Assembly: GCA_017882605.1 (NCBI GenBank)
Contig: JADGPE010000002.1
Span: forward strand, 9,381 to 73,380
DNA from: Thermoleophilia bacterium
GTDB lineage: Bacteria > Actinomycetota > Thermoleophilia > Gaiellales > Gaiellaceae
DNA length: 64,000 nucleotides
Reading direction: 5' to 3'
The notes beneath the pieces were generated by a model. The model had not been told where the DNA came from and did not search any database. It worked only from the letters and a program-made list of their open reading frames with translations. Shown here piece after piece: positions 12,374-60,388 of the stretch (within the stretch, counting starts at the first letter, position 1; every line of letters begins with the position of its first letter). The position numbers and the translations under genes were made by a program.

Positions 12374-12425
12374 CGCTGCCTCCTTTGTCGCTTCCAGACT
12401 GCACCCGGCTCCCAGGCGGCGCACC

Positions 12426-12438: not shown

Positions 12439-12522
12439 AGTTGCCTCGGGGCGTTCGCCGATTCCCTGGACACCGCCGACCGAACATGATCGAGTGAAGC
12501 TCCAGCGAAAAGGAGGCGTCTC

Positions 12523-16958: not shown

Positions 16959-17345
16959 TCAGATGACGGCGGAGTCGGGCCTCACTCTCGAAGCCACAGG
17001 TGTGATCTCCAACGAGGTCGAGCCTGGTTGCTCGCTGCGAGGAGCACGAAGCACCACGATGCCGTCCGCGATTCGAACGGTGAGGTGGGTCGTGTCGGCT
17101 CCCTCGGGCAGGTGGAAGTCGCGACGGAACTCGGTCGGCCCGCGCTCGTCCTGCAGGTAGTGGTGATCGCCGGCATGCCCGAAGCGATGCCCGCTGACGC
17201 TCACCACGGGCCCCGACACGGACACGGCGAGCTCGTCCGGGCCGAACCCGGGAGCCTCGAGCTCGACCGTCACCGCTCTCTGCGTCAGATACACGTCCGC
17301 GCAGGGCAGACGCTGCGACGCGTGGCCGTTCGTCTCGATCGACAT
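16959..17345 (-). CDS. Hsp20/alpha-crystallin family small heat-shock protein
   Basis: ACD-like core VTVELEAPGFGPDELAVSV...FRRDFHLPEGADTTHLTVRIADGIVVLR; ATG 17345 with GAAGGAGG SD. Confidence 0.85.
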   Translation of the reverse strand: MSIETNGHASQRLPCADVYLTQRAVTVELEAPGFGPDELAVSVSGPVVSVSGHRFGHAGDHHYLQDERGPTEFRRDFHLPEGADTTHLTVRIADGIVVLRAPRSEQPGSTSLEITPVASRVRPDSAVI

Positions 17346-17454
17346 GGAACAGCCTCCTTCGAGTCTACGGCGCCATCGTCGGAGGACAGGTCGCACATCG
17401 CATCAGTGGCTTCGCTGACGAACCGTGCGGATCGCCGCTGATGCAGGCGATCGT

Positions 17455-23702: not shown

Positions 23703-24188
23703 ATGAAGTCGATCGTTCTCGCTACCGACGGCTCGCCTTCGGCTGCCGAGGCAACGGTGCGCGCGGTCGAGCTCGCAGGCGCGCTCGATGCGACACTCAT
23801 CGCAGTGGCGGTGGAGCACGTCACCGTCCCCGCGTACGGCTACTACGGCTATGCCGACGTCGTCACGGAGCTCGCCAAGATGGAGCACGAGCACGTGGAC
23901 GAAGCGCTTGCGCGCGCGAAGGCCGTCGCGACCGAGGCCGGAGTTCCCTGCGAGGTCGTGCACGCCACCGGCTCGATCTCCGAAGAGATCTGCAATGTCG
24001 CGGCGTCCCACCACACGCGCCTGATCGTCATCGGCGCGCACGGTTGGGGTCCGGTTCGGAGGTTGCTGCACGGCAGCGTGTCGAGTGCAGTCCTCCATGA
24101 TGCGCCCTGCCCGGTGCTCGTCGTGCGCGCCGACCAGGCCACAGCCCAGACAACCGCCACCGCACAGGTTGAGAAGGCCCGTCAATGA
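23703..24188 (+). CDS. universal stress protein
   Basis: IVLATDGSPSA...LIVIGAHGWGPVRRLLHGSVS; GAGGAGG SD. Confidence 0.88.
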   Translation: MKSIVLATDGSPSAAEATVRAVELAGALDATLIAVAVEHVTVPAYGYYGYADVVTELAKMEHEHVDEALARAKAVATEAGVPCEVVHATGSISEEICNVAASHHTRLIVIGAHGWGPVRRLLHGSVSSAVLHDAPCPVLVVRADQATAQTTATAQVEKARQ

Positions 24189-29824: not shown

Positions 29825-31354
29825 CTAGGAGCCGGTCGTGTGCGCGCGGACTGCAACCGGCCGCGTCACCGCGGATGCATACGCCGAGCCGCCGAGCACC
29901 TGGACGCGATAGCTGCCGGGCCGCAGCGTGCCGTTGAAGACCCCCTGCGAGCTCGCGACGGCACGCCAGCGACGGCGGGTCAGCCGCTGCACCTGCAAGG
30001 GCAGCCGCGGCGAGACGACCGCGTGCAGGCTCTGGCCGCGAGTGCTCACCGACACGCGCGGGGCGACCTGCAGCGGCACCGTGTCGCCGGCGACGCCGTT
30101 GTAGGCGAGCCGCAGCTCCGTGGAGCGCAGCGCTGGGAGGGAGACGGCGAACCGCCCGGAGGGCGCCGGGCGAATGCGGCGCACCGTCTGCCAGCCCCGG
30201 TCGGTCAGCTCCTGGAGCCGTGCGCGGCCGAGACCGCGAACCCAGCCGCGCACGCGCACGCGATCGCCGTAGACGAGGCCGGCTGACACGTCGTCGAGCG
30301 TCAGCGCCTGAATCTCGAAGTCGGTCGACCCGAGCTTGAACTTCGTCCGGATCACCCCGCCCGGGATCTGCGTCCAGCCGTGAGATGTGAGCGCGCGCAC
30401 GGCCTGTGCACGACCGGACGGGTTGCGCACCACGCGCAGGTCGCGCACGCCGTCGAGACGAAGCACCGTCGCGATCCGCTCCGGTGTCAGCACGGTCGTC
30501 GGCCAGATGTGGTGGGGCGAGATGTAGTCGTACGGATCGGCGACCGACACGAGGTAGGGCACCTGCTGCATGCGCGGCCAGGCGTCGTGAACCGACGACG
30601 TCTTGCCGCCCGACGTCGAGAAGTAGTAGGCCGGGATGATCTGGTCGCCCCACACGAGCACCTGGGCGGCGGTCGCCCCGACCGCCAGGTTCGTCTCCGT
30701 CCGCTCGGCCCGGATCCCGCCGTACATCTGCGACCGGTCGTCCGGGAACAGGTCGAAGTCCTTGCCCGGCTTCAGCATCGCGAGCGTGTAGGAGCGCGCG
30801 GCCACCGCCTGCGCCTCGTAGGTCTGCGCGTGCCAGGCGACAGGCACCTCCCACGGCACGACCCCCCGGAGGTAGCGGTCGAGCGGGAGCACGTTGACGG
30901 CCATCAGCCCGCCCGGCTTCGCCTTGACGACGACCGCGCCACGGTAGCCCGCGCCGCCGACCCGCAACGGCTGCGCGCCCGGCTCGAACCGCAAAGGAAA
31001 TGCGAGCCGCTCGAAACGACGCCGCACCGTGAGCGTCCCCGTCGGCACGTGCACCTTGTGGCCGCGCGCATCGACGACGAGGAACGGTGATGCGGATCCG
31101 ACTCGCAGCTTGGACTGGTTCTCTCGCAGCAGGATGCGCACGGTGCGAGGACCGGCGAGTCCTATGTGCGTGTGCGGGTAGTAGTGCGCGAGGATCTGCC
31201 GGTAGTCGAAACCGTGGCGCGCGTAGCCCTCGGCGCCCCATTGGCTCATTCCGACTCCGTGACCCCACCCTCGACCGTCGAGGAGGAACACCGTCCCGGC
31301 GCGCGCGAGCCCTGGAAACGCGAGGGCGGCAAGTAGCACGACACAAACCCGCAT
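29825..31354 (-). CDS. SpoIID/LytB domain protein (secreted)
   Basis: Signal peptide MRVCVVLLAALAFPGLARA; GRGWGHGVGMSQWGAEGYA and FSTSGGKT SpoIID motifs. Confidence 0.85.
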   Translation of the reverse strand: MRVCVVLLAALAFPGLARAGTVFLLDGRGWGHGVGMSQWGAEGYARHGFDYRQILAHYYPHTHIGLAGPRTVRILLRENQSKLRVGSASPFLVVDARGHKVHVPTGTLTVRRRFERLAFPLRFEPGAQPLRVGGAGYRGAVVVKAKPGGLMAVNVLPLDRYLRGVVPWEVPVAWHAQTYEAQAVAARSYTLAMLKPGKDFDLFPDDRSQMYGGIRAERTETNLAVGATAAQVLVWGDQIIPAYYFSTSGGKTSSVHDAWPRMQQVPYLVSVADPYDYISPHHIWPTTVLTPERIATVLRLDGVRDLRVVRNPSGRAQAVRALTSHGWTQIPGGVIRTKFKLGSTDFEIQALTLDDVSAGLVYGDRVRVRGWVRGLGRARLQELTDRGWQTVRRIRPAPSGRFAVSLPALRSTELRLAYNGVAGDTVPLQVAPRVSVSTRGQSLHAVVSPRLPLQVQRLTRRRWRAVASSQGVFNGTLRPGSYRVQVLGGSAYASAVTRPVAVRAHTTGS

Positions 31355-31376
31355 TGCGGATCGGCAGAGTAGCGGC

Positions 31377-32510
31377 GTGCGCAAGCTCCTGCTCCTGACG
31401 AGCGCGATCGTCTTCTTCGACACGCTCTTCTTCGCGGCGCTCACACCGCTGCTCCCGCACTACTCCGAGAGCTTGGGGCTCGGCAAGACCGGAGCCGGCG
31501 TCCTCGCGGCCGCGTATCCGGCCGGCGCGTTCCTCGGGGCGCTTCCGAGCGGCGTCGTGGCGGCACGCGCGGGCGTGAAACGGACGGTGCTCGTCGGCCT
31601 GACCGCCGTGGCCTTCTGCACCGTGCTCTTCGGGATCGCGAGCGAGCCCTGGCAGCTCGACGTGGCGCGTCTCCTCCAGGGAGTGGCGAGCGCCTTCTCC
31701 TGGACCGGGGCACTCGCGTGGCTCGTCGCGGCTTCCCCGGCCGGCCGGCGCGGCAGCCTGATCGGCACGGCGTTCGCAGCGGCGGTCGGCGGTGCACTCT
31801 TCGGTCCCGTGCTCGGCGGTGTCGCCTCGGTCGCCGGCACCGGCTGGACCTTCGGCGCTGTGGGCGTCGCTTCTCTGGGCCTCGTCGCCTGGGCCGCGAC
31901 GACTCCCTCCGCGCGTCCCGACGCGCCCCAGTCGTTGCGGATGCTCGGCCGAGCGTTCACGGAGCCCCGCATTCTCGGAGCGTTCTGGTTCGTCCTCCTC
32001 CCCGCGCTGCTCTTCGGCACCGTCTCGGTGCTCGCTCCGCTGCGTCTGGCGGCACTCGGATTCGGGTCGGTCGCAATCGGCGCCGCCTTCCTCGTCACCG
32101 GCGTGTTCGAGGTGGTGAACAACATCGTCGTCGGGAGGCTGTCCGACCGGCGCGGCCCGCTGTACCCGATCCGCATCGGGCTCGCCACCTCGATCGCCGT
32201 CGCGGCGATCTATCCCTGGCCGGACGAAGCATACGCGCTCACAGCGGTGATCGTCTGCGGCGGCCTCGCGTTCGGGACGTTCTTCACACCGGGGATGACG
32301 CTCCTCACCAACCTGGCGGAACGGCGAGGGCTCGACCACGGCTACACGTTCGCGCTCGTCAATCTCGCGTGGGCCCCCGGGCAGACGCTCGGCGCAGCGG
32401 GCGGTGGCGCACTCGCCCATGCAACCCGCGACGCGGTCCCCTACCTCGCTCTTTCCGCCGTCTGCGCACTGACTCTCACCGTGCTCTGGCGCGTGAGGAT
32501 GGACGGCTAG
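31377..32510 (+). CDS. MFS transporter
   Basis: 12 hydrophobic segments, GRLSDRRG loop motif. Confidence 0.85.
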   Translation: MRKLLLLTSAIVFFDTLFFAALTPLLPHYSESLGLGKTGAGVLAAAYPAGAFLGALPSGVVAARAGVKRTVLVGLTAVAFCTVLFGIASEPWQLDVARLLQGVASAFSWTGALAWLVAASPAGRRGSLIGTAFAAAVGGALFGPVLGGVASVAGTGWTFGAVGVASLGLVAWAATTPSARPDAPQSLRMLGRAFTEPRILGAFWFVLLPALLFGTVSVLAPLRLAALGFGSVAIGAAFLVTGVFEVVNNIVVGRLSDRRGPLYPIRIGLATSIAVAAIYPWPDEAYALTAVIVCGGLAFGTFFTPGMTLLTNLAERRGLDHGYTFALVNLAWAPGQTLGAAGGGALAHATRDAVPYLALSAVCALTLTVLWRVRMDG

Positions 32511-45700: not shown

Positions 45701-47266
45701 CTACGTCCCGGTCACGATCCCGGCGCCGCCTCGCCGGGCGTCGCCGGCGGCGGCCAGCGCACCGTCCCGCACCTCGACCGCGTTCGTGCCGCCGAAGAAG
45801 AGATTCCGCCTGCGCCAGCGCACGACCTCGTAGCCGAACGACTCCAGACGGTCGAGCACGGCCGGGTCGAAACCCCCCTCGCAGTGCAGGTGCGGCTCGT
45901 CGACGTGCACGCGCGGCCGATCGATCGCGGCCGCGACGTCGAGCCCGTGAGCGACGACGTTCGCGATCACCTGCATGATCGCGCCCCGCAGGCGCACCGA
46001 GCCGGCGCTGCCGACCACGAGGCGCGGTCCGTCGGGCCCGACCACCACGGTCGGCGCCATCATGCTCGTCAGCCGCCGCCCGGGCGCGGCCGGGCCGCCG
46101 GCCACGAGGTCGTACTCGCCGAGCATGTTGTTCAGGTGGATGCCGGTGCCGGAGACGATCACGCCCGACCCGGAGCCGGTCGACGAGGAGAGCGACGCCG
46201 CTGTGCCGTCTGCGTCGACGACCGACACGTGTGTCGTTCCTGCGGGCGCCGGCTCGGTGACCCCCGGCGCGCCCGCTTCCATCCGCGCCAGGCCGCGGGC
46301 GATCCCCGCGGGCGACAGCAGCCGCCGCCCGAGCCCGCCCCGGTGCAGGCCGCTCGTGAATCCCTCCTCCCGGACCCTCGTCTGTTCGCGCATCACCTCG
46401 GCGAGCGACGCGATCGACTCGGCGCTGCCGGCCGCGCCGTGTCCCGTGTGCTCAAGCAGCCCAAGTCCGTAGCCGATGAGGATCCCGCCCGAGGACGGCG
46501 GCGGGTTCGAGATCACCTCGTGACCGAGATAGCCGACGCGCACCGGCCGGCGCCAGGCGACGCGGTAGCCGGCGAGGTCCGCCTCGCTGATCGCGCCGCC
46601 GCCTTCGCTCACCGTCTGCACGATCGCGCGAGCGAGCTCACCGCGGTACAACGCTGCGGCTCCCTCCGCAGCGATCTGCTCGAATGTGCCGGCGAGATCG
46701 GGGAGATGCAGCGTGTCCCCGGGCGCGAGCCGCGACCCGTCCGGGCGGCTGTACACCCGCCGGCCCTCGGCGGTGTGACGCAGGATCAGGTCGAGGATCG
46801 CGTGCAGGTGCGCTTGGGCGCGGGAGACCTCCACCCCGGCCCGGGCGAGCTCGATCGCAGGCTCGAGCAGGATCTGCCACGGCAGGCGGCCGTACGAGCG
46901 GTGGACAGCCTCGAGCCCCGCTCCCGCTCCGGGCACGGCACAGGATGCCTCGCCGATCCGGAAGACCTGGGTGGTCCCGCTGTCACCACCGAACGCGACG
47001 TCGATCGCATGCATCTCCGCCTCGGTAGGCACAGCGCGGCCGATCCCCGGGGTCGAGACGAAGAAGTCCGCCACCCGGGCAGGGCGCCCGTCCGAGGGCA
47101 CGATCAGCGCGAAGCCTCCCGCGCCGGGACCGGTCAGTGGGCTCTCCGCCACCCAGGCGGCGAAGGCAGCCGCAACACAGGCGTCGACAGCGTTTCCGCC
47201 CTCCTCGAGCACCCGTGCGCCGGCGGCGGCGGTCAGCGGATGGCCTGCCGCGATCGCACCCCTCAT
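45701..47266 (-). CDS. ggt: gamma-glutamyltransferase
   Basis: GGNAVDA, autoprocessing/nucleophile GTTHVSVVD, GSGGS-like loops; ATG 47266. Confidence 0.9.
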   Translation of the reverse strand: MRGAIAAGHPLTAAAGARVLEEGGNAVDACVAAAFAAWVAESPLTGPGAGGFALIVPSDGRPARVADFFVSTPGIGRAVPTEAEMHAIDVAFGGDSGTTQVFRIGEASCAVPGAGAGLEAVHRSYGRLPWQILLEPAIELARAGVEVSRAQAHLHAILDLILRHTAEGRRVYSRPDGSRLAPGDTLHLPDLAGTFEQIAAEGAAALYRGELARAIVQTVSEGGGAISEADLAGYRVAWRRPVRVGYLGHEVISNPPPSSGGILIGYGLGLLEHTGHGAAGSAESIASLAEVMREQTRVREEGFTSGLHRGGLGRRLLSPAGIARGLARMEAGAPGVTEPAPAGTTHVSVVDADGTAASLSSSTGSGSGVIVSGTGIHLNNMLGEYDLVAGGPAAPGRRLTSMMAPTVVVGPDGPRLVVGSAGSVRLRGAIMQVIANVVAHGLDVAAAIDRPRVHVDEPHLHCEGGFDPAVLDRLESFGYEVVRWRRRNLFFGGTNAVEVRDGALAAAGDARRGGAGIVTGT

Positions 47267-47355
47267 GGATGTCCCCCTACGGCCGATGAAGAGAGCGTGG
47301 GACACATCCCTAGCCGAATCTTCACCCTTTCCCTACTAACTCGACGCGATGCTTC

Positions 47356-48392: not shown

Positions 48393-49694
48393 TTACGACT
48401 CGCGCAGGAACGACGGCGGCTCGAGCACTTCTCCGAAGCCCGCCGACGCTGCGGTCACGAACGTCCCGCGCTTCGACGACGAGCGGCCGCCGATCCCCGT
48501 CGCCACGACCGTGATCCACATCTGTCCCTCGAGCCGGTCGTCGATCGTCGCGCCGAAGATGATGTTCGTGTCGTCCGTGGCCGCCTCTCGCACGGCCTCG
48601 GCGGCTTCATTGACCTCGTAGAGGGTCAGGTCGTCTCCACCTGCGATCGAGAGCAAGATGCCCCGCGCGCCGGTGATCTCCGTCTCGATCAACGGGCTGC
48701 GCAACGCACGCTCCGCGGCTTCCTTCGCGCGGTTTTCACCGGTTGCGTATCCGATCCCCATCAGCGCCGAGCCGGAGTCCGCCATGATCGTGCGCACGTC
48801 GGCAAAGTCGAGGTTGATCAGGCCCGGGTTGGTGATCAGGTCGCAGATGCCCTGGACGCCGTGCCGGAGCACGTCGTCGGCGATCCGGAAGGCGTCGAGC
48901 ATCGAAGTCGACTTGTCGAGCACCTCGAGCAAGCGATCATTCGGGACGACGATCAGCGTATCGCAGGCCTCGCGCAGCGCCTGCAGCCCGTCTTCGGCCT
49001 GCTTCTTGCGGCGCGATCCTTCGAATTTGAACGGCAGCGTCACGATGCCGACGGTCAGCGCACCGAGCTCGCGCGAGATCCGCGCGACGACGGGTGCGGC
49101 CCCTGACCCCGTGCCGCCACCCTCGCCGGCTGTGACGAACACCATGTCCGAGCCGCGCAGCGAGCGTTTGATCGCGTCGTAGCCGTCCTCCGCGGAGCGG
49201 CGGCCGATCTCCGGGTCGGCCCCCGAGCCGAGCCCCTCGGTGATCTCGCTGCCGATGTGGATCTTCGTCGAGGCATCGCTCATCTGCAGCTGCTGGATGT
49301 CGGTGTTGACCGCTATGAAGTCGACCTGGTTGATCCCGGCGTCGATCATCCGGTCGACCGCGTTCAGCCCGGCGCCGCCAACGCCGACGACGCGGATGAC
49401 GGCGAGGTACGACGCACTGTCGCGCGCGCGCTCGAGGCGCGCAGGCTGTTCGGGAAGCGGGTCGAGCCAGCGCGCCAACGGGCGCTCTGCGCCGGCAGGC
49501 TCGGCGTCGAGCTCGGGAGCGGAGGGAACCGCCCGGATCGGCGTCGGCTCGGGAGGAGCCGGGTCGTGCGCGACGGGCGCGGGAGTGACCGGCGGCTCCG
49601 TCGGAAGCTGCTGTTGTTCTCTGTGCTCGTCCTTCGACCTCCGCTGCGCTGCTTCCGTGGCCCGGAAGAGCTCGGCGAGCGGGCCTTCACGCAT
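48393..49694 (-). CDS. ftsZ: cell division protein FtsZ with apparent N-terminal extension
   Basis: VGVGGAGLNAV, GGGTGSGAAPVVA tubulin signature, NLDFADV T7 loop, C-terminal LEPPSFLR peptide; ATG 49694 overlaps parA stop by 8 nt; alternative TTG 49478. Confidence 0.9.
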   Translation of the reverse strand: MREGPLAELFRATEAAQRRSKDEHREQQQLPTEPPVTPAPVAHDPAPPEPTPIRAVPSAPELDAEPAGAERPLARWLDPLPEQPARLERARDSASYLAVIRVVGVGGAGLNAVDRMIDAGINQVDFIAVNTDIQQLQMSDASTKIHIGSEITEGLGSGADPEIGRRSAEDGYDAIKRSLRGSDMVFVTAGEGGGTGSGAAPVVARISRELGALTVGIVTLPFKFEGSRRKKQAEDGLQALREACDTLIVVPNDRLLEVLDKSTSMLDAFRIADDVLRHGVQGICDLITNPGLINLDFADVRTIMADSGSALMGIGYATGENRAKEAAERALRSPLIETEITGARGILLSIAGGDDLTLYEVNEAAEAVREAATDDTNIIFGATIDDRLEGQMWITVVATGIGGRSSSKRGTFVTAASAGFGEVLEPPSFLRES

Positions 49695-50532
49695 GCTGGC
49701 GCGATTTCTTGCCACTGAGCACCTCCTTTGCAAGGTCACGGTACATCTGCGCGGCATCTCCGGACGGTTCGTAGGCGAGGATGGATGCTCCCTTGACGGG
49801 CGCCTCTGCGAAGCGCACGGTCTTCCGAATGCGTGTGTTGTAGACGAGGTCGCCGAAGCTCTCGCGCAGAATCTCGTCGGCCTCGCGCGAGTGCGTCACT
49901 CGCTTGTCGTACATCGTCGGGACGATCCCGATGATCTCGACCTTCGGGTTGAGATTCTCGCGCACCATCGCGAGCGTGTTCTCGAGCTGCACGAGGCCGC
50001 GCAGTGAGAGGTACTCGGTCTGCACCGGGACGAGGACGCCGGTGGCCGCGACGAACGCGTTGATCGTGAGCAGCCCGAGCGAGGGCGGAGTGTCGATCAT
50101 GATGAAGTCGTAGTCGTCCCTGATCGGCGCAAGCGCCTTTTCGAGCGCGCGTTCGCGGCCGATCTGGCTCGAGAGCGCCATGTCCGCGCCGGCGAGGTCG
50201 ATCGACGAGACGGCGATGTCCACCTCGACGGTCTGGATCACCTCGGTGATCGGCAGGCGGTGGACCAGCACGTCGAACATCGAGGTCTCGATCGTGTCGG
50301 GATTCAGCCCCTGCGACATCGTCAGGTTCCCCTGCGGGTCGAGGTCGATCAGCAGCACTTTGTACCCCTGCTCGGCGAACGCGACGCCGAGGTTCAAAGT
50401 CGTGGTCGTCTTGGCAACGCCGCCCTTCTGGTTGGCGAGCGCGATCACCTGCGTCTCGCCAGGCAAAGGCACGCTCGCAAGGCGAACGTTGGGACGCGGA
50501 AGGAGGCGCGCGAGACCCATGTGAAGCGCCAT
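49687..50532 (-). CDS. ParA/Soj-family ATPase (no parB seen)
   Basis: Deviant Walker A NQKGGVAKTTT, LLIDLDPQGN; start ATG 50532 or 50520. Confidence 0.88.
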   Translation of the reverse strand: MALHMGLARLLPRPNVRLASVPLPGETQVIALANQKGGVAKTTTTLNLGVAFAEQGYKVLLIDLDPQGNLTMSQGLNPDTIETSMFDVLVHRLPITEVIQTVEVDIAVSSIDLAGADMALSSQIGRERALEKALAPIRDDYDFIMIDTPPSLGLLTINAFVAATGVLVPVQTEYLSLRGLVQLENTLAMVRENLNPKVEIIGIVPTMYDKRVTHSREADEILRESFGDLVYNTRIRKTVRFAEAPVKGASILAYEPSGDAAQMYRDLAKEVLSGKKSRQHA

Positions 50533-50543
50533 TTCGGGTTGGC

Positions 50544-50753
50544 TCAGCTCATTCCTTCCGCCTCCTTGCGAAGTTTCGCCGCCGCGGCCCGCGCCCGTGC
50601 GTCGCCCTCGGCCCTCGCCCACGCCTCGGCCTCGGGCACGAGCGCTCGCAGCTCGCCCAGCAGCTCGCGCGTGAGCCCGCCCGCTCGGAGCGTCTCGATT
50701 CGCTCCAGTCGAGCGAGCACACCTGCCGTCACACCGCCTTGCTCATCCACCAT
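50544..50753 (-). CDS. hypothetical small helical protein (69 aa)
   Basis: ORF-track ORF, ATG start, high GC3, ends 12 nt before parA start; no family recognised. Confidence 0.45.
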   Translation of the reverse strand: MVDEQGGVTAGVLARLERIETLRAGGLTRELLGELRALVPEAEAWARAEGDARARAAAAKLRKEAEGMS

Positions 50754-50820
50754 CCGACCGTAGCCGGACGGATGTGACGTGTCTGTGCCGTCTCCGTGAA
50801 AAGAGCGCGCCGGCGCGGTG

Positions 50821-52035
50821 CTAGGCGACGCGGAGCATGGACGCCGGGCGCGGGCGCATCCCGAGCAGGGTGTCGTCCAGTGCGAGCACGAGGTCGCCTC
50901 GGTTCCCGTGCAGGAGCGTCTCGACGAGCGTCCGGCGCACGGCGTCGCGCGCGTCGCGGCCGAGCGGCTCGGCGCGGAGGGTGTCGAGCAGCTCGCTGCG
51001 CTCTCGCCCCTTCTCGGTCAGGAGGACTGCGGCGCGCATCGTGGCGGCCCAGGGCCCACCGTCGCCGCCCAGCAGGCAGACGAGGCCCTCGCGGATCTGG
51101 GCGGATCGGAACGGCTCCTCCGAAAAGAGGGAGAGCTCCCAGCGGTCGAGCGCCTCGCCAAGCTCACGGTCGGTATCGGCGAGTGTCAACTGTGCGCGCA
51201 GGTCGGCGGCCAACCGAGCCCGTACCTTGTCGAGGCGCGTCGCGTCACCGCGCGGCTGCGTGGCGGCAATCGGCAGCAGCGGCGAGATGCGCAACGGGCG
51301 AAAATCGAGCCGCTCGAAGACGACGGGGCCGGCCGCGACCGCGCCTGCGGTCGCGAGGCGCAGGGCGGTGATCGCGTCGGCGAGCTCGGCCGCCGCGTCC
51401 GGCGGCTCCGACTCGTGTGGTTCGAGCTCGCGCCTCAACTCCAGCAGGAGCAGCCGGTCGACGTCGCGTCCGAACTCCGGCGGCAGCAGTCCCTGTGCTT
51501 CGGGCCAGAGGTGCGAGATCTCGCCCGTGACGACCTGGCGAAGCGTGATCCCGCCGCCGAGGTCGGCGTCGTTCCCGGCAGAGAGCCCGACCACCGGGGC
51601 GAGTGCGACATACGTGCGCGCGCTACCGAACAGGGTGCGCTCGAGGTCGGCGTAGGCCGCGTCGAAGGCGTCGTCGTGCCAGTCGAAGCCGCCGCTGCGC
51701 TCGGCGGTCCACGTCAGCATCGGGATGAGGATCGACCGGAAGAGCGCCTCGTCGCCGGTGTCCCCGATGCCGGAATGCGCGCGCGCGAAGATCGCCGCGG
51801 CGGGCTCGCGTTTCAAGTCGTCGATGGCGTTGCGCGCGTCGGGGAGCCGGCGCAACGTCGGCGCCTGCTCCTCGACGAAGCCGCGCACGAGGGGGCGGTA
51901 CTCGTAGAGCGACGGCCCGTCGCGTGTCGCGTGCTCTTCGAACGCAAACGGCACCTGGGCGCCGCGCTCGGCCGCGAACGCGGCGAGACAGAACGCGCGC
52001 AGGGACTCGTAGAGGTGCGGGGCGCGGAGCGACAC
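50821..52035 (-). CDS. hypothetical protein (404 aa), no recognised domain
   Basis: Very high GC3 and balanced acidic composition over whole frame; GTG 52035 is 9 nt after nei stop. Confidence 0.7.
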   Translation of the reverse strand: MSLRAPHLYESLRAFCLAAFAAERGAQVPFAFEEHATRDGPSLYEYRPLVRGFVEEQAPTLRRLPDARNAIDDLKREPAAAIFARAHSGIGDTGDEALFRSILIPMLTWTAERSGGFDWHDDAFDAAYADLERTLFGSARTYVALAPVVGLSAGNDADLGGGITLRQVVTGEISHLWPEAQGLLPPEFGRDVDRLLLLELRRELEPHESEPPDAAAELADAITALRLATAGAVAAGPVVFERLDFRPLRISPLLPIAATQPRGDATRLDKVRARLAADLRAQLTLADTDRELGEALDRWELSLFSEEPFRSAQIREGLVCLLGGDGGPWAATMRAAVLLTEKGRERSELLDTLRAEPLGRDARDAVRRTLVETLLHGNRGDLVLALDDTLLGMRPRPASMLRVA

Positions 52036-52044
52036 GTGGTGGAG

Positions 52045-52803
52045 TTACACGCGCGGCGGGTCGTCTCCTGCCTGGCAGCCGGGACACCAGTAGGTCATTC
52101 GGTTGTCGTCGCCCTGCCCCCACGAGCGAATGCGGGCGCCGCAGCGCGGGCAGGGACGGCCGGCGCGGCGATAGACCCGATGGCCGACGCGGCGTGCGTC
52201 GTCGACCGACGCGCGCATGAGCTCGGCTGCGGACTCGAGCGCCCGGCGACGATCCCCGTCGGACACGTCGCGGAGGCGGCGCCAGGGCGAGAGCTGCACC
52301 CCCCACAGTGCCTCCGCGAGCCACATGTTCCCGATCCCGGCGACGACCGACTGGTCGAGCAGCGTCTCGCCGAACCAACGCGTCTCGTCCGCCCTGCGCA
52401 TCCGTTCGAGCATCGTGTCGAAACGTGGCGGCCGTTCGAGGATGTCCGGGCCGAGCCGGGCGATCGACCGCGTGTGCAGTTCGAGCACCGGGCCGTTCCA
52501 GAGCACACCTTCGGCCCGCTCGCCACGCAGGACGAGCCACGGCGTCCCGGCTCGGGGGCCACCGAGCGGCGTGACGGTCCAGCGGCCCGACAGACGCAGG
52601 TGGGAGCGCAACACAATTCCGCCTTCGAACCGGAAGAGCAGATTCTTGCCGAGCGCCTCGACCGACTCGAGCACCCGGCCGTCGATCCGCTCCGCGATCC
52701 GCTCAGCACGCGCCCGGGGGTGCGGCGCGTCGACCGAAAGCCGCTGGCCGACCAGCGCCTGGAGGCGTCGAGCGGCACGATGGATCGTGTCCCCCTCGGG
52801 CAC
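52045..52803 (-). CDS. nei: Fpg/Nei family DNA glycosylase (endonuclease VIII-like)
   Basis: fMet-PEGDT N-terminus (catalytic Pro2) fixes start at GTG 52803; H2TH GIGNMWLAEALW; zinc finger CPRC...CPGC. Confidence 0.88.
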   Translation of the reverse strand: MPEGDTIHRAARRLQALVGQRLSVDAPHPRARAERIAERIDGRVLESVEALGKNLLFRFEGGIVLRSHLRLSGRWTVTPLGGPRAGTPWLVLRGERAEGVLWNGPVLELHTRSIARLGPDILERPPRFDTMLERMRRADETRWFGETLLDQSVVAGIGNMWLAEALWGVQLSPWRRLRDVSDGDRRRALESAAELMRASVDDARRVGHRVYRRAGRPCPRCGARIRSWGQGDDNRMTYWCPGCQAGDDPPRV

Positions 52804-53380: not shown

Positions 53381-56300
53381 CTATGCCCGTAAGACGGCGC
53401 GGCGCGGCCCCGCGAGGAACCCTGCATCGACGAGCAGCTGCATTGCCTCCGTGTCGACGACCGGCTCGCCGTCGAACCGCTCGACCGCGAGCCGCTTGAG
53501 GCCGCCCGCCCGCACGTGCGCGACGAGCGCAGCAAGCGCCGGGCGCAACCACGCGTCTTCCGGATCGCGCAACGGCACGAGCGAGCGGCCGCCGCGCTCG
53601 ACGTACAGCACCGGCTCGCCGCCGAGTGACACGAGATAGGCGCCCGCGACACGCGCAGCGCGCGCACCCGCCCGACGGGGCCACGGCAGCGCTGCTCCGT
53701 ACGGCTGGGCCGGATCGGCGGCGGCGAGGACGAGCGCGGCGCCGTCTTCGTCTCGATCGCGCAGCTCCCGCAGGCGCTCGACGGCGCCGCCGAGTGCGAA
53801 CTGCGCGCCGCCCAGCCCTTCGACGAAATACCCGCGCCGGCACAGGCCGAGCGTCTCGAGCGCCCGCAATTCGCCGTACACGGCGCCGTAGCCGCCCGGG
53901 ATCCCTTCCGCACGGACACCGTCGCGCGTGACGATTCCCTGCCGCTCGAGCAGCAGCTCGGCGAGCGCGCGGCGGTCCGGCGCGCCCGTGAAGAGACGCT
54001 CCGTGCGCGACCATCGACCGGCGGTCGCCGTCGGCCCCTGCACACGACGTCGCGAGAAGCGCCGCGGGCGCCGCTCGGGTTTCGGTGTGCCGAAGCGGCG
54101 TGCGGCGCGCAACGGCGTCCACGCGTCGTTCGTCACCTCGCCGGCCCAGACGAGGTCCCAGAGCGCAGGCAATGCCACGGCGTCCTCGAGCTCCGTCTCG
54201 ACGAGCAGCTCGTCCCAGAAGAGCGCGCTCTGCAGCGCGTCGCGGATCCTGTCGTGCTCCGCCCCTTCGGGTCTCGGAGCTCCGGGAACCTGGCCGAGCG
54301 CCGACGCGTCCTCGCGGAAGTACAGCGAGACGCGGTCCTGCCCCGCCCCGATCCACACGACCTCGCCGCTCGCGGTGAGCGCATCCAGGTGCTCGGGCCG
54401 GTAGGCGGGCACACGGCGCGGCAGGACCTCCGTCTCCCAGAGTGCGACCGGCAGCGGCAACGCCTGGAGCGGCACAAGCGCTTCACGTAGCGACGCTCGG
54501 CGATCGACACCGTGCCACGACGGCAGGAACCGCGCGAGCGCCTCCTGATCGACCGCCTCGACCTCGCGCCGCAGCGCCGCCAGCGAGGCGCGGCGCAGCC
54601 GCCGCAACACGTCGGGATCACACCACTCACGCTCGGTCCCACCCGGGCGCAACTCACCACGAACGAGTTGCTCGGCGCGCTCGAGCTCGATCAGCACGTT
54701 TGCGACGTCTCGACCGAAGCGCTCGTTCGCCTGACCGGTGGTGAACGGCCCGCGGCCCTTGGCATACCGGAGCACGAGCTGGCGCAGCGACTCCGGCCCG
54801 CCCTCCAGAAACACGTCCGGCAAGCCCGACGGCGACATGACGCCGAGTGCGTCGCGGTAGCGCCCGGCGTCCTCGACGGCGATCAGCCGCTCTTCGCCTG
54901 CGATGCGAACGACGAGCGCGCGCCGCTCCTCGACGAGCGGAGTTGCGAGCGCAGGATCGTATTCACCAGGACGCAGGTCGCCGCGCAGCCGCAGCTTGTC
55001 GTGGAGCTGGTCGGGCGTCTTCGCCTCGCCTTGCAGCTGGCGCTCCACCTCCTCGACCGCGTCGGCGTCGAGCAGGTCGCGCAGCTCCTCCTGGCCGAGC
55101 AGCTCCCGGAGCAGGTCGCGGTCGAGCGAGAGCGCCTGCGCCCGCCGTTCAGCCGGAGGTGTGTCGTCCTCGTACATGTAGGTCGCGATGTAGTCGAAGA
55201 GCAGCGATGCGGAGTAGGGCGAGGCGCTCTGCGTCTCGATCTCGACGAGATCCAGGTCGTGCGTCTTCAGCCCCTGCAGCAGCGTGCGCAGCGCGGGCAG
55301 GTCAAACACGTCCTGCAGGCACTCGCGGTAGGTCTCGAGGATCACCGGGAAGCTGCCGTACTTCCGCGCCACCTGGAGGAGCGATTGCGCCTTCAGGCGT
55401 TGCTGCCAAAGCGGTGTGCGCTCACCCGGGCGCCGGCGCGGGATCAGGAGGGAGCGGCCTGCATTCTCGCGGAAGCGCGCGCCGAAGAGCGCGGTGTCCC
55501 CGACCTCGGCGACGACGAGATCCTCGACCTCGCCGGGGTCGATCATCAGGTCCTCGGTCGGCGGCGGCACATCCGACTCGGGGAAGTGCAGCGCGATGCC
55601 GTCGTCCGACCAGATCGACTGGGCTTCGATGCCGTGCGCCTCGCGCAGCCGGGCCGCGATCGCCATCGCCCACGGCGCATGGACGCGCCCGCCGAACGGC
55701 GAGAGGATGCAGACCCGCCAATCGCCGATCTCGTCTCTGAAGCGCTCGACCACGATCGTCCGGTCGGAGGGAACCGCCCCGGTCGCGCGTTCCTGTTCGC
55801 GCAGGAACGTGAGCAGGTTGTTCGCGGCGCGCTCGTCGAGATGGAACTCACCGCGCAACCGCTCGGTCGCCTTTCGCTCCGAGAGCGCCGACAGCTCTCG
55901 TGACGCCGCTCCGATCTTCTGGCCGAGCTCGTACGGACGCCCGACGCCTTCTCCCTTCCAGAACGGCACGGCGCCGGGCAAGCCCGGCGCGGGCGACACG
56001 AGCACGCGGTCGCGCGTGATCTCCTCGATCCGCCAGGTCGAGGCACCGAGCAGGAAGGTCTGCCCGGCCCGCGCCTCGTAGACCATCTCCTCGTCGAGCT
56101 CGCCGACGCGCCCGCCGCCGTCGGCGAGAAACACACCGAAGAGGCCGCGGTCGGGGATCGTGCCCGCGTTCGTGACGGCAAGCCGTCGCGCGCCGTCGCG
56201 CGCACGGATCATGCCGCCGGTGCGATCCCACACGATGCGCGGCCGCAACTCCGCAAACTCGTCCGACGGATAGCGGCCGGCGAGCATGTCGAGCACATTC

Positions 56301-57655
56301 TCGAGCTGGGCGCGGCTCAGGTCCTTGAACGGGTAGGCCGCCATGACGAGCCGATGCAGGTCGTCGACGGAGATTTCCGAGTCCGCGGCAATCGCCACGA
56401 CCTGTTGTGCGAGGACGTCGAGCGGGTTGCGCGGGATCCGCGTCTCCTCGATCTCGCCCTCACGCATCGCGCGCGCAACGACGGCGGACTCGAGCAGGTC
56501 GGCGCGAAACTTCGGGAAGATCCGCCCCTTGGATGTCGCACCCAGCTCGTGGCCCGCGCGCCCGATCCGTTGCAGGCCGCGTGCGACCGACTTCGGCGAC
56601 TCGACCTGGATCACGAGATCGACGGCGCCCATGTCGATGCCGAGCTCGAGACTCGACGTTGCAACCAGGCACGGGATCCGCCCCGCTTTCAGGTCTTCCT
56701 CGACGATCGTGCGCTGCTCGCGGGCGAGCGACCCGTGGTGCGCGCGGGCGATCTCCTTCTCCGCGAGCTCGTTCAGCCGCAGCGCGAGCCGCTCGGCCAG
56801 CCGGCGGTTGTTGACGAAGACGATCGTCGACCGGTGCTCTTCGACGAGCCGGAGGATCTCGGGGTAGATCGACGGCCAGATCGACTGCGAACCACGCTCG
56901 GTACCGCTGTCCATCTCCTGGCCGTCGGCCGGCACCGGCTGCGACAGGGAGGCCGTCGAACCGAGCTCGCGCATGTCCTCCACGGGAACGACCACCTCCA
57001 GGTCGAGCTCCTTGCGCGTGCCCGCATCGACCAGCGTGATCGGCCGGTTGCCGGAGACAAAACGGCCGATCTCCTCGAGCGGCCGCTGCGTGGCCGACAG
57101 GCCGATCCGCTGGATCGGCCCATCGGCGAGCGCTTGCAGGCGCTCGACGGAGATCGCGAGATGAGCGCCGCGCTTCGAGCCTGCAATCGCGTGCACCTCG
57201 TCGAGGATCAGCGTCTCGACGCCGCGCAGCGACTCCCGCGCCTGGGAGGTGAGCATCAGGTAGAGCGACTCGGGGGTCGTGATCAGGATGTCCGGCGGCT
57301 CCTTCTGCAGCTCGCGGCGTTCCTTCTGCGGGGTGTCGCCGGTGCGCACACCAACCCTCAACTTCGACTCGAGGCCTGCGAGTGGGCCGCGGAGGTTCCG
57401 CTCGATGTCGTAGTTCAGCGCCTTGAGCGGCGAGACGTAGAGAAGCCGCAGGCCCCGGCCCGGCGTGTCGTTCAGGCGGTCGATCGCGGAGAGGAACGCG
57501 GTCAGCGTCTTGCCCGAACCGGTCGGTGCCTGGATCAGGACGTGCTCGCCGCTCGCGATCGCCGGCCAGCCCTGCGTCTGCGCGGGCGTCGGCGCGTCGA
57601 AGGCCTGCTCGAACCAGGCCCGCGTCGCAGGCGAGAAGACGCTCAGCGGGTCCAT
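53381..57655 (-). CDS. lhr: ATP-dependent helicase Lhr (full length with C-terminal domain)
   Basis: APTGSGKT, DEVH, SSLELGID, QRIGRAGH helicase motifs; 1424 aa; start ATG 57655 (MDPLSVFSPATRAWF). Confidence 0.93.
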   Translation of the reverse strand: MDPLSVFSPATRAWFEQAFDAPTPAQTQGWPAIASGEHVLIQAPTGSGKTLTAFLSAIDRLNDTPGRGLRLLYVSPLKALNYDIERNLRGPLAGLESKLRVGVRTGDTPQKERRELQKEPPDILITTPESLYLMLTSQARESLRGVETLILDEVHAIAGSKRGAHLAISVERLQALADGPIQRIGLSATQRPLEEIGRFVSGNRPITLVDAGTRKELDLEVVVPVEDMRELGSTASLSQPVPADGQEMDSGTERGSQSIWPSIYPEILRLVEEHRSTIVFVNNRRLAERLALRLNELAEKEIARAHHGSLAREQRTIVEEDLKAGRIPCLVATSSLELGIDMGAVDLVIQVESPKSVARGLQRIGRAGHELGATSKGRIFPKFRADLLESAVVARAMREGEIEETRIPRNPLDVLAQQVVAIAADSEISVDDLHRLVMAAYPFKDLSRAQLENVLDMLAGRYPSDEFAELRPRIVWDRTGGMIRARDGARRLAVTNAGTIPDRGLFGVFLADGGGRVGELDEEMVYEARAGQTFLLGASTWRIEEITRDRVLVSPAPGLPGAVPFWKGEGVGRPYELGQKIGAASRELSALSERKATERLRGEFHLDERAANNLLTFLREQERATGAVPSDRTIVVERFRDEIGDWRVCILSPFGGRVHAPWAMAIAARLREAHGIEAQSIWSDDGIALHFPESDVPPPTEDLMIDPGEVEDLVVAEVGDTALFGARFRENAGRSLLIPRRRPGERTPLWQQRLKAQSLLQVARKYGSFPVILETYRECLQDVFDLPALRTLLQGLKTHDLDLVEIETQSASPYSASLLFDYIATYMYEDDTPPAERRAQALSLDRDLLRELLGQEELRDLLDADAVEEVERQLQGEAKTPDQLHDKLRLRGDLRPGEYDPALATPLVEERRALVVRIAGEERLIAVEDAGRYRDALGVMSPSGLPDVFLEGGPESLRQLVLRYAKGRGPFTTGQANERFGRDVANVLIELERAEQLVRGELRPGGTEREWCDPDVLRRLRRASLAALRREVEAVDQEALARFLPSWHGVDRRASLREALVPLQALPLPVALWETEVLPRRVPAYRPEHLDALTASGEVVWIGAGQDRVSLYFREDASALGQVPGAPRPEGAEHDRIRDALQSALFWDELLVETELEDAVALPALWDLVWAGEVTNDAWTPLRAARRFGTPKPERRPRRFSRRRVQGPTATAGRWSRTERLFTGAPDRRALAELLLERQGIVTRDGVRAEGIPGGYGAVYGELRALETLGLCRRGYFVEGLGGAQFALGGAVERLRELRDRDEDGAALVLAAADPAQPYGAALPWPRRAGARAARVAGAYLVSLGGEPVLYVERGGRSLVPLRDPEDAWLRPALAALVAHVRAGGLKRLAVERFDGEPVVDTEAMQLLVDAGFLAGPRRAVLRA

Positions 57656-57863
57656 CCGCCAAGCGTACTCGCGCCGCCCCAGCTCAGGTGGTACGCCAGA
57701 AAGGCGAGGACGCGGATGACGCCGGCGACCGCCAGGACGACTTACGAAGCGGTCACTCGCCGCTGCTCGCCAGACACGATCCTTGGCGTGGTCTTGGCCA
57801 TCGGCTAGCTCGCGTTTGTCCTGCCGCTGGGGGGACGAGGCGTAGAACGGAAGCGCATCGAAG

Positions 57864-57883
57864 ATCTCGACCAATCTCGACCA
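57864..57883 (+). repeat. tandem direct repeat ATCTCGACCA x2
   Basis: Two exact adjacent 10-mers immediately upstream of the AAAGGAG SD of the 57895 gene. Confidence 0.6.
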
Positions 57884-58777: not shown

Positions 58778-59674
58778 TCACCGCAAGGCCTTCAACGCCG
58801 GCCCGAGCGCCTGTTTCCCGTGCAGGACCGGCTCGAACAGGTCGCCGTGCTTCGCCAGCCGCTCGAGCGCGACCTGCATCGAGAAGTCGCGCGGCCGGAT
58901 GTCCTCGACCAACTCGTCCCAGTGCAGCGGCGTCGAGACCGGCGCGCCCGGCTTCGGCCGCACCGAGTACACCGATGCGATTGTCTTGCCCCACCCGTTC
59001 TGGCGGTGGTCGACCAGCACCCCGGCGCGCTTGCGCTTCAACCACTCGGTTGTCACCTCGCCGGGGTGTTGCTCCTCGAGCTTGCGCGAGAGAAGCTCCG
59101 CGAATTCGTAGGTGTCCTCGAAGGTCGAGCGGCGCACGATCGGGACGAGGATGTGAATCCCGTCCGCACCACTCGTCTTGACGAACGACTCGAGCTCGAG
59201 CGCCTCGAGCGCGGCGCGGACGTAGTGCGCCACGTGCACGCAAAGTTGGAACGCATCGGTCTGTTCCGGAGGATCGAGATCGAACAGCACCCAGTCCGGC
59301 CGGTCTGGCTTGTCGACGCGCGAGTACCACGCGTTCATGTCGATGCAATGCATCTGCACCATCCACAGCAGCGCATCGCGCGAGTCGACGAGCGGGAAGT
59401 CGACGAGCCGCGACTCACCCTTCCCGCCGCGCGGCCAGGTGCGGAACTCGCGGGTCGGGATCCAGTCCGGCATGCCCTTCGGTGCCTGCTTCTGGAAGAA
59501 CGCCTCGCCTTCGAGCCCTTCACGCCACCGCTTCATCGTGAACGGCCGGTCGCGCAGGTGCGGCACGATCGCGTCGGCGACCTTGTCGTAGTACTCGAAC
59601 AGGTCGCCTTTGGTGATCCCCTCGCCGGGGAAGAGCACACGGTCGGCCGAGCTGAGCTTCACCTCGTGACTCAC
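58778..59674 (-). CDS. LigD-type polymerase/primase domain protein (stand-alone PolDom)
   Basis: LSSADRVLFP, DLFEYY, FFQK, LVDFPL, VLFDLDP AEP-primase motifs; GTG 59674 forms GTGA with upstream stop. Confidence 0.88.
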   Translation of the reverse strand: MSHEVKLSSADRVLFPGEGITKGDLFEYYDKVADAIVPHLRDRPFTMKRWREGLEGEAFFQKQAPKGMPDWIPTREFRTWPRGGKGESRLVDFPLVDSRDALLWMVQMHCIDMNAWYSRVDKPDRPDWVLFDLDPPEQTDAFQLCVHVAHYVRAALEALELESFVKTSGADGIHILVPIVRRSTFEDTYEFAELLSRKLEEQHPGEVTTEWLKRKRAGVLVDHRQNGWGKTIASVYSVRPKPGAPVSTPLHWDELVEDIRPRDFSMQVALERLAKHGDLFEPVLHGKQALGPALKALR

Positions 59675-60388
59675 CCCCGAACCGTCCACATGACGTTCGC
59701 ACGGTTTGGAATCGCGTACGTTCCTTCCGGAAGTAGCGCAGCGAGACGCACAAGGGCCGCTTCGCGCTCTTCGTCCGGACGGCTCGCGATCCAACTGACC
59801 GTTCGCGCGTTGTCGAGCAGGCCTGCCCGATCGAGGACGTGGTCGTGCGGCACAGCCGTCTGTTGCACGTCGCCGAACGGCCCGCGGGCGAGCACGTCCT
59901 GCCACGGCGGCGCGTCGTGGAAGGCAGTCACGGAGCGGAGTTCGTCCAGATATGCGATGTACGCCTCCGGGAGCGGGGAACGGCGGTCCTCATCCGGTCC
60001 GTTCCAAACGAGCGCCAGGACTCCGCCGCGCCTCAGTACCCGTGCGATCTCCGCGACCGCTTCGTCGTTCGCAAACCAGTGGAATGCTTGGCCCGCGAAG
60101 ATCCCGTCAACGGACGCAGCCGCCAATGGGATGGCCTCCGCGCTGCCCGCCATGCTCTCGGCGGCAGGCACCACGCGCTCGAGGATCGCACGCATCTTGT
60201 CGAGCGGCTCGACAGCGATCACGCGGCGGTAACGCTCCGCGAGCACGCGCGTCAGCTTTCCCGTGCCTGCTCCGAGATCGAGGACCTCGGCATCGGCTGC
60301 CAGGGGCAAGTCGTCAAGCAGCCGAGGCGGATAGTCCGGGCGAGTGCGCTCGTACTCCTCCGCGGCGCCGTCGAAACTGCGGGACGGC

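Follow-up and report, generated by a model that had tools for sequence, protein, structure and literature searches.

The 64,000-nt stretch of contig JADGPE010000002.1 analysed here (the window), which originates from an uncultured soil bacterium of the family Gaiellaceae (class Thermoleophilia), carries an ftsZ gene that is overlapped by the gene of an orphan ParA-type ATPase. The same gene pair is found in related genomes across the class Thermoleophilia, and the FtsZ it encodes opens with a short peptide that distinguishes it from the FtsZs encoded in division and cell wall (dcw) clusters. On balance, we favour the interpretation that the locus represents a class-wide Thermoleophilia module consisting of a 404-aa protein (hyp404), optionally a 69-aa protein (sm69), ParA, and a specialised FtsZ, in which ParA would act on FtsZ via this N-terminal peptide.

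According to the ORF listing of the window, nei, hyp404, sm69, parA, and ftsZ are five consecutive ORFs on the minus strand (for coordinates see Table 1), which confirms the same-strand string described in an earlier note that was made from the sequence alone. A divergent 154-aa plus-strand ORF, followed by lhr, lies at the 5' side of nei, while at the 3' side of ftsZ a convergent LPG_synthase_TM gene comes first and a gamma-glutamyltranspeptidase gene next, so that nei to ftsZ form a bounded same-strand block. The gaps given in the earlier note for nei-hyp404 (9 nt) and hyp404-sm69 (67 nt) are correct, while that between sm69 and parA was recomputed as 11 nt instead of 12 nt. Apart from ftsZ itself, no mur or fts genes were detected in the 64-kb window by tblastn with 14 dcw proteins, and a Pfam scan of approximately 60 window ORFs returned no mur, fts, or ParB (ParBc) domains, as had been stated previously; the remaining ORFs represent ordinary metabolism, stress, and repair genes. 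A scan for promoter and terminator consensus sequences and an Rfam search yielded nothing informative inside the five-gene block. The closest relatives of FtsZ and hyp404 are 78%–100% identical, and those which carry a name belong to metagenome-assembled genomes (MAGs) labelled "Gaiellaceae bacterium."

When the ATG at 49694 is taken as the start of ftsZ, as was done in the earlier note, parA and ftsZ overlap by 8 nt (ATGCGTGA). An in-frame GTG is found further upstream, at 49715, 6 nt after the Shine-Dalgarno sequence AAGGAGG (49728–49722). This sequence is conserved in nearly all related loci at a position 6–8 nt ahead of the upstream ftsZ start; the relatives have an ATG in place of the GTG, nearly always with an identical upstream AAGGAGG; and 104 of 120 close homologs begin at the equivalent site in public gene calls. 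Because of the spacing of AAGGAGG, the ATG of the relatives, and the public gene calls, GTG 49715 is most likely the start of ftsZ, which results in a predicted protein of 440 aa with the N-terminus MARNRASMREGPL. The overlap with parA would therefore comprise 29 nt rather than 8 nt (compared to approximately 14–17 nt in loci of the Solirubrobacterales type). As read from these sequences, the gene pair is a case of conserved translational coupling, with the predicted ribosome binding site and the start codon of ftsZ inside the 3' end of parA, so that ParA and FtsZ are predicted to be made from one shared mRNA.

Related loci (designated L001, L010, and so on in this analysis) were collected by scanning a single genome of each species, with the 8-mer INLDFADV as the only key. 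At least 80 FtsZ loci were listed, and in at least 26 of these parA is located immediately upstream of ftsZ and overlaps it. These 26 loci are labelled as Thermoleophilia, Gaiellaceae, Gaiellales, Solirubrobacterales, Solirubrobacteraceae, or Thermoleophilaceae. Five more contigs, found via relatives of FtsZ and hyp404, hold the same pair, and the overlap is present in 31 of the 31 related parA-ftsZ loci examined (MAGs and metagenome contigs). The usual 3' neighbours are a gamma-glutamyltranspeptidase gene and a gene for a protein with a Lon-substrate-binding domain. Judged by gene order, parA-ftsZ is syntenic across the whole class Thermoleophilia and is not a local accident. The most basal locus (L010, 9166–12566) has the gene order yajC, parA, ftsZ, scpA, scpB, and its FtsZ has a short linker and a variant of the N-terminal peptide (SMKDGLSELFRRT). 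This order suggests that ftsZ was inserted beside an orphan parA which preceded scpAB. A place before scpA-scpB is presumably also that of the orphan ParA Rv1708/PldP.

A few of the loci have peculiarities of their own. In L016 (7056–9229, minus strand), and also in L008 and L012, which are of the Solirubrobacterales type, two opposite-strand genes for ArsA/Get3-like ATPases are found directly upstream of parA; farther upstream, the hyp404 homolog is preceded by the gene for an HxlR-type regulator, and this in turn by genes for a principal sigma factor and a PilT-like ATPase. L013 (CAMCUD010000008.1) is from a MAG labelled as "Bifidobacterium breve" but is a typical parA-ftsZ-ggt locus of the Solirubrobacterales type, which makes an error in labelling or binning probable. 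The ftsZ of L007 is interrupted by a frameshift that probably stems from long-read sequencing.

The parA-linked FtsZ consists of the N-terminal peptide, a disordered linker, the GTPase core, a short C-terminal linker, and the C-terminal peptide. The consensus M-x(1-5)-[KN]RASMREGPLAxLFRxT opens all 27 parA-linked FtsZs that were aligned (the window and 26 loci; the peptide alignment A3 holds 19 sequences). Averaged over 25 diverse parA-linked FtsZ sequences, identity to the window residue is 82% in the peptide, 20% in the linker (with 24% gaps), 69% in the GTPase core, and 16% in the C-terminal linker. Third codon positions of the peptide change across relatives while the residues stay constant, so that selection acts at the protein level. 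The peptide was not found in 120 dcw-type FtsZs, nor in 37 further dcw FtsZs from metagenomes, and in the FtsZs compared the peptide and the overlap with parA always occur together, never one without the other. A dedicated ParA–FtsZ module, as proposed in the earlier note, gains substance from this FtsZ-specific peptide and from the class-wide coupling. The linker of the window protein is composed of 21% proline, 17% alanine, 12% glutamate, and 11% arginine, and among relatives its length varies from approximately 15 to 150 aa. Solirubrobacterales-type linkers (L008, L009, L011, L014, L016, L017, L027, L029, L042) contain a second short motif, P(S/T)PxERL(R/K)xxFSxxIPEN(V/I/M)(M/L), about 40–60 residues before the core, in place of which Gaiellales-type linkers have a weaker ..ARxxxPxPExPARLxR.. 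stretch.

Beyond its N-terminal part, the protein resembles a regular FtsZ. It scores 423 bits against the equivalog model TIGR00065 (cutoff 295.2), 164 bits against PF00091 (Tubulin), and 115 bits against PF12327 (FtsZ_C), and GGGTGSG, the T7 loop NLDFADV, and the C-terminal LEPPSFLRES are retained, as the earlier note had observed. In actinobacteria, the C-terminal tail of FtsZ binds membrane anchors such as SepF. Because of the complete core and the anchor-binding C-terminal peptide, the protein is predicted to be catalytically complete and should be able to polymerise and to join the Z ring. We consider it extremely unlikely that it belongs to a cytoskeleton unrelated to division, in which an FtsZ paralog and ParA position or segregate another cargo (DNA or a protein complex). 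Elsewhere, FtsZ/tubulin paralogs such as TubZ and FtsZm have indeed taken over the segregation of DNA or the positioning of organelles, and hyp404 would be available as a conserved partner of unknown function, but FtsZ paralogs with divergent functions usually lose the C-terminal anchor peptide, which is kept here, and 58%–64% identity to bona fide FtsZs as well as a score far above the equivalog cutoff argue against such a role.

Typically, the housekeeping ftsZ closes the dcw cluster, after ftsQ or ftsA. The ftsZ of the window is not, in agreement with the earlier note, and its parA-type relatives are never dcw-linked. It is, however, probably a second ftsZ rather than the only one, as canonical dcw-encoded ftsZ genes occur in MAGs labelled as Gaiellales, Solirubrobacteraceae, Conexibacter, and Thermoleophilaceae. 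Among the matches listed in the scan were ten other Thermoleophilia-like loci without ParA, and in most of these ftsZ ends a mur cluster, with the order murE-murF-mraY-murD-ftsW-murG-murC-murB-ftsQ-ftsZ or the shorter murC-murB-ftsQ-ftsZ (the latter also in L035, labelled Thermoleophilaceae). The dcw-type FtsZs have about 360 aa, lack the N-terminal peptide, and are labelled by NCBI as "Solirubrobacteraceae bacterium" (five proteins), "Conexibacter sp.," "Solirubrobacterales bacterium," and "Gaiellales bacterium"; parA-type loci bear the same family labels. Sequence identity to FtsZ from Rubrobacter and Bacillus/Bacilli is 68%–77% for the dcw type, in keeping with slow evolution, while the parA type shows 58%–64% identity to all other FtsZs, including those of each other's order-level groups. 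In neighbour-joining trees, the parA-type FtsZs were monophyletic in 200 of 200 bootstrap replicates and never grouped with the dcw type of the same order. Both lineages are represented in the same orders and families, and the grouping inside each of them roughly follows the split between Gaiellales and Solirubrobacterales, which indicates that both were present in common ancestors.

An independent random sample of dcw clusters was obtained by scanning metagenome contigs with a MurB profile, which resulted in 80 Thermoleophilia-like dcw loci. Sequence of at least 1.8 kb is available after murB in 45 of these loci. In 43 of these 45, murB is followed by ftsQ-ftsZ, usually with gcvT-gcvH next. 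The two others (L125 and L129) end at murB, with unrelated genes next and no ftsQ or ftsZ within 2.6–6 kb; their G+C content is 63%, compared to 69% for the window. The commonest group of dcw FtsZs in this sample (20 of 37) has the N-terminus MRDQxGNYLA (D3-type, as in the Gaiellales-labelled proteins) and the C-terminus ..LEVPSFLRD, which is close to LEPPSFLRES. These proteins have xVNLDFADV rather than INLDFADV, so that the scan keyed on the latter listed almost no dcw FtsZ from Gaiellales. One dcw-type FtsZ of 368 aa (L084–L093) recurs with 100% identity on at least 23 contigs, which were assembled from different samples, always in the context murC-murB-(64 aa)-ftsQ-ftsZ-(58 aa)-gcvT-gcvH-gcvP; both small ORFs are conserved and do not belong to a known family.

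With parA-ftsZ being near-universal in the sampled Thermoleophilia and nearly all dcw clusters retaining their ftsZ, two FtsZs per genome is the most economical explanation. We thus consider it probable that the source genome of the window holds a dcw ftsZ beside the parA-linked one, which most likely is a second, specialised paralog. That such a canonical dcw copy exists elsewhere, with the present copy as a paralog, had been named in the earlier note as an argument against its own reading; this applies at the level of the lineage, and probably to the source genome. Several observations count against two FtsZs in the same cell. No contig or assembly with both types was found when records and accessions of the dcw type and the parA type were compared, and none of the labelled dcw-type proteins is specifically labelled as Gaiellaceae. 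Three near-complete parA-type chromosomes of 2.7–3.6 Mb (L008, L016, L042) have a single FtsZ locus each among the INLDFADV matches listed, a result which is limited by most Gaiellales-like dcw FtsZs lacking that 8-mer. Such findings would also be expected if the sole ftsZ had left the dcw cluster and come under ParA, with the related dcw FtsZs originating from other lineages, in which the parA-linked copy was lost or was never present. Such a relocation would also fit with the retention of every feature of a primary FtsZ and with the two clusters that end at murB. Nevertheless, we regard it as unlikely, given that both lineages coexist in the same orders and families with parallel order-level splits, that ftsZ is retained in 43 of 45 dcw clusters despite the predominance of parA-ftsZ lineages among known Thermoleophilia, and that the two exceptional clusters deviate from the window in G+C content.

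The ParA of the window was compared to solved structures at the sequence level. Its best match is the "cobyrinic acid a,c-diamide synthase" from M. smegmatis (4PFS/5IHP, 203 bits), which shares the motif KGGVAKTT. This protein we take to be MSMEG_1927/Rv3213c (ParP), an orphan ParA. Lower scores were obtained for the chromosomal-type ParA 8RAY (181 bits), Thermus Soj (1WCV, 174 bits, full-length alignment of residues 27–274), and Helicobacter Soj (154 bits). McdA and MinD structures score about 53 bits or less, and MipZ (2XJ4) scores 31 bits, with the match restricted to a 43-residue P-loop region; the Pfam MipZ model (43 bits) falls far below AAA_31 (197 bits). None of the NCBIfam equivalog cutoffs is reached by this protein. 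Its deviant Walker A motif (NQKGGVAKTT) together with the full-length similarity to Soj assigns it to the type Ib ParAs (KGGxGK[ST] with the signature lysine). The arginine in ..tvRfaeap.. aligns with that in ..nvRlaeap.. of Thermus Soj (position R189 of B. subtilis Soj), the residue with which Soj binds DNA non-specifically in the presence of ATP. With its polar character, the C-terminus (..KEVLSGKKSRQHA) does not fit the amphipathic membrane helix of MinD, and neither minC nor minE is found in the window. No ParB was detected in the 64-kb window, nor among the annotated flanking genes of L010, L016, and L081, so that the orphan status proposed in the earlier note was corroborated. By its sequence, this ParA is an orphan of the Soj/ParA-like type and is neither MipZ-like nor MinD-like, contrary to the MipZ and MinD parallels that had been drawn.

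We find it very unlikely that this protein is the ordinary Soj for chromosome segregation, with ParB encoded elsewhere and the adjacency to ftsZ merely coordinating expression. The full-length similarity to Soj proteins and chromosomal-type ParA and the arginine kept at the DNA-binding position of Soj are in line with such a function, but chromosomal parA and parB genes are normally adjacent, whereas parB was found neither within the 64 kb of the window nor in the annotated flanks of L010, L016, and L081. In addition, KGGVAKTT and the best match to 4PFS suggest membership of the orphan ParA group of actinobacteria, as does the location before scpA-scpB in L010, which we associate with Rv1708/PldP.

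In ParA partners such as ParB, PomX, McdB, and ParG, a short basic peptide at the N-terminus is attached via a flexible tether; it binds ParA and stimulates its ATPase. The N-terminal peptide of the parA-linked FtsZ may have a corresponding function: ATP-bound ParA dimers on the nucleoid would bind this peptide in the same manner as ParB or PomX are bound, via their N-terminal peptides, by ATPases of the ParA family. ParA on the nucleoid could thereby place the parA-linked FtsZ or license its assembly, probably as a positioning or nucleating subunit, and this FtsZ may co-assemble with the housekeeping FtsZ encoded in the dcw cluster and seed or tune the ring. Recruitment and exclusion are not distinguished by the sequence, so that the sign of regulation may be either. 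More tentatively, we propose that one of two full-length FtsZs is a "positioning" client, the direct cargo of the nucleoid-bound orphan ParA, through a tethered ParA-activating peptide, with hyp404 as a third component.

Some points speak against this proposal. A profile of the 19 peptides, when searched against all PDB chains, matched no ParB N-terminus, with chance hits to rubrerythrin (E about 0.3) as the only result. The peptide does not show the ..GLGRGLxALL.. motif of ParB/Spo0J and has in common with it just the architecture, a basic peptide on a tether; any "ParB-like" resemblance is weak. The connection from peptide to ParA is drawn from sequence and architecture, and the peptide could serve another partner. 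This might be hyp404, SepF, or a different protein of the divisome or of its regulation, or the peptide could be a phosphorylation site (KRAS context) or a degradation signal, with ParA and FtsZ being co-expressed but not in contact through it. In favour of such alternatives, hyp404 accompanies the gene pair almost as faithfully as parA does. Rv3213c (ParP), whose M. smegmatis counterpart we take to be 4PFS, is a substrate of the PafE-proteasome and of unknown function (10.1101/249060), and N-terminal extensions of FtsZ with other roles occur in cyanobacteria and actinomycetes (10.1101/2025.09.29.679267). We nevertheless assign a low probability to such alternatives, because the peptide and the parA overlap are never found apart, because hyp404 frequently lies at a distance of several kb and has no upstream copy in L010, L013, and L029, and because ParA partners typically have this architecture, a long tether with a short basic peptide at the N-terminus.

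The hyp404 protein is confirmed as a conserved neighbour. Of the 30 parA-ftsZ loci searched with hmmsearch, several of which carry little upstream sequence, 22 have a same-strand homolog upstream, compared to 0 of 12 dcw loci. It directly adjoins parA in L094 and is 1–8 kb away in the other loci. The family has 534 representatives among 1.84 billion proteins, and there is no Pfam, NCBIfam, or PDB sequence match. An AF2 model computed with a deeper alignment (pLDDT 88, pTM 0.70; pLDDT 46 with a shallow alignment) predicts a three-part alpha/beta protein, for which Foldseek reports no match in PDB or BFVD below E = 0.1 (best E = 0.17–0.2, TM about 0.1). Hyp404 is a lineage-restricted protein and its neighbourhood is the one clue to its function. 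A remote homolog (35% identity) in L082 (9174–11272) and L083 is the only one in a context without a nearby parA-ftsZ; it overlaps by 4 nt with a gene for a 276-aa protein resembling AlkA-type 3-methyladenine DNA glycosylases (2YG8, E = 1e-4). Together with the location of nei before hyp404 in the window, this hints at an association with DNA glycosylases. A role of hyp404 in DNA repair was nevertheless judged secondary, as parA-ftsZ is by far the more constant neighbour.

In contrast to hyp404, sm69, the other partner envisaged in the earlier note, is confined to Gaiellales-type loci, where it follows hyp404 (copies in L081, L002, L004, and L005 are 50%–84% identical). Between sm69 and parA, several loci of non-Gaiellaceae Gaiellales have a gene of about 325 codons for an internally duplicated bicupin-like protein (L002, 8173–9156; L004, 7971–8942; L005, 7989–8963). 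The nei gene has a GTG start, and its product has the N-terminus MPEGD, with the catalytic Pro-Glu dyad typical of these glycosylases, the domains PF01149, PF06831, and PF06827, and the zinc finger pattern CPRC...CPGC; it is a member of the Fpg/Nei domain family but scores below the NCBIfam equivalog cutoffs for Nei and Nei2. In the window, as in L001, L002, L003, and L005, the gene has lhr for a neighbour. Both nei and lhr accompany the block in Gaiellales-type loci only, and nei is missing in L004, L007, L097, and all Solirubrobacterales-type loci. The pairing of lhr and nei (Lhr helicase and Nei2 glycosylase) is known from mycobacteria, although in the window the 154-aa opposite-strand ORF lies between them. 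Because nei is variable among relatives and pairs with lhr, it belongs with lhr and not with ftsZ, and the link to DNA damage that the earlier note had drawn through nei is not supported.

In function, the known systems closest to the proposed one are PomXYZ, MipZ, and the orphan ParAs of corynebacteria and mycobacteria. It is reminiscent of PomXYZ from Myxococcus xanthus, in which an orphan nucleoid-bound ATPase of the ParA family (PomZ) marks the site for FtsZ and a basic N-terminal peptide of PomX stimulates the ATPase. Here, however, the candidate peptide is on FtsZ itself, no genes for PomX/PomY-like coiled-coil proteins are nearby, the ATPase is Soj-like, and its gene overlaps ftsZ. MipZ from Caulobacter crescentus, also an ATPase of the ParA/MinD superfamily, touches FtsZ directly and sets the division site without Min, but it is an inhibitor of FtsZ that depends on ParB, its gene is not linked to ftsZ expression, the Caulobacter FtsZ lacks the peptide, and the ParA of the window matches MipZ only in the P-loop. 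With Soj-Spo0J the system shares the ATPase subfamily, with an arginine kept at the position that Soj uses for DNA binding, and it resembles it in the proposed kind of partner, a protein whose tethered N-terminal Arg/Lys peptide activates the ATPase in the known case; it differs by having no parB or parS at the locus, by a proposed partner that is a tubulin-family GTPase, and by a peptide that is not detectably ParB-like.

The best structure match and KGGVAKTT relate the ParA to the mycobacterial and corynebacterial orphan ParAs, namely PldP (C. glutamicum)/Rv1708/MSMEG_3743 and ParP (Rv3213c/MSMEG_1927). Either of these two may be the ortholog; their genes are not located beside ftsZ, and the FtsZs of these organisms lack the peptide. 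The orphan ParAs PldP and Rv1708/MSMEG_3743 influence septum placement (PMC10482377). Second FtsZ lineages that were kept beside the housekeeping FtsZ for a long time are found in plastids and cyanobacteria-derived systems and in haloarchaea (FtsZ1/FtsZ2), and truncated paralogs occur in Hyphomicrobiales (10.1101/2025.09.29.679267). In contrast, neither of the two FtsZ types of Thermoleophilia is truncated and both have a C-terminal peptide; what defines the additional type is its ParA partner gene and the N-terminal peptide.

To our knowledge, actinobacteria have neither Min nor nucleoid-occlusion systems, and Z-ring placement is an open question in this phylum. In the searchable literature, we found no report of two complete FtsZs in Actinomycetota, no description of a ParA-coupled FtsZ with an N-terminal peptide, and no informative link of FtsZ with Thermoleophilia, Solirubrobacter, Conexibacter, or Gaiella. 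Compared to known cases of spatial control of FtsZ by ParA-family ATPases, it is new that ftsZ itself is the coupled gene, that a peptide defines the clade, and that a second full-length FtsZ is probably involved. A class of abundant soil actinobacteria thus appears to hard-wire a ParA ATPase to FtsZ, with a peptide that is more conserved than the GTPase core. If the peptide is the handle for ParA, this would be the most direct coupling of ParA to FtsZ known, without an adaptor such as ParB, PomXY, or MinC. Actinomycetota would also be added to the few lineages in which two complete FtsZs are known, and the mycobacterial orphan ParAs would gain a functional lead, with hints as to what ParP and PldP/Rv1708 evolved from or act on. 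The system is readily testable, as it involves two proteins and one 20-residue peptide and as Gaiella, Conexibacter, and Solirubrobacter are available as cultured hosts.

Table 1. Positions of the five-gene block, of elements within parA-ftsZ, and of context genes in the window
Feature	Position	Strand	Remark
ftsZ, parA-linked type	48393-49715	-	440 aa from GTG 49715; ATG at 49694 in the earlier note (ORF 48393-49694)
C-terminal peptide VLEPPSFLRES	48396-48428	-	canonical FtsZ tail; read from the sequence
N-terminal linker, approximately residues 21-102	49410-49655	-	hypervariable in sequence and length
N-terminal peptide, codons 1-20, MARNRASMREGPLAELFRAT	49656-49715	-	specific to parA-linked FtsZ; proposed ParA-interaction motif
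Shine-Dalgarno sequence AAGGAGG for ftsZ	49722-49728	-	within the ParA codons for ..AKEVL..
parA, orphan Soj/ParA-type deviant Walker A ATPase	49687-50532	-	281 aa; Pfam AAA_31/CbiA, AAA_31 197 bits
sm69, small helical protein, 69 aa	50544-50753	-	no Pfam/NCBIfam family
hyp404, lineage-restricted protein, 404 aa	50821-52035	-	no Pfam/NCBIfam family
nei, Fpg/Nei-family DNA glycosylase	52045-52803	-	Pfam Fapy_DNA_glyco, H2TH, and zinc finger
lhr, large helicase-related protein (context)	53381-57874	-	Pfam DEAD, WH_Lhr, DEAD_assoc
gamma-glutamyltranspeptidase gene (context)	45701-47305	-	downstream neighbour of parA-ftsZ, kept across the class

Elsewhere in the window, a gene for a protein with a LigD primase-polymerase domain (58778–59905, minus strand) is found within 8 kb of lhr and nei, so that a small DNA-repair neighbourhood is located upstream of the module. 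About 17 kb from ftsZ, a 539-aa SpoIID-domain protein (cell-wall lytic transglycosylase family) is encoded at 29825–31444 (minus strand). Adjoining genes for phosphoketolase (XFP) and acetate kinase occupy 3148–6824 (minus strand), universal-stress-protein genes are found at 11921–12972 and 23703–24188, and an Hsp20 gene at 16959–17396. The sole RNA family match in the window is a tRNA-Trp (CCA) at 147–220 on the plus strand.

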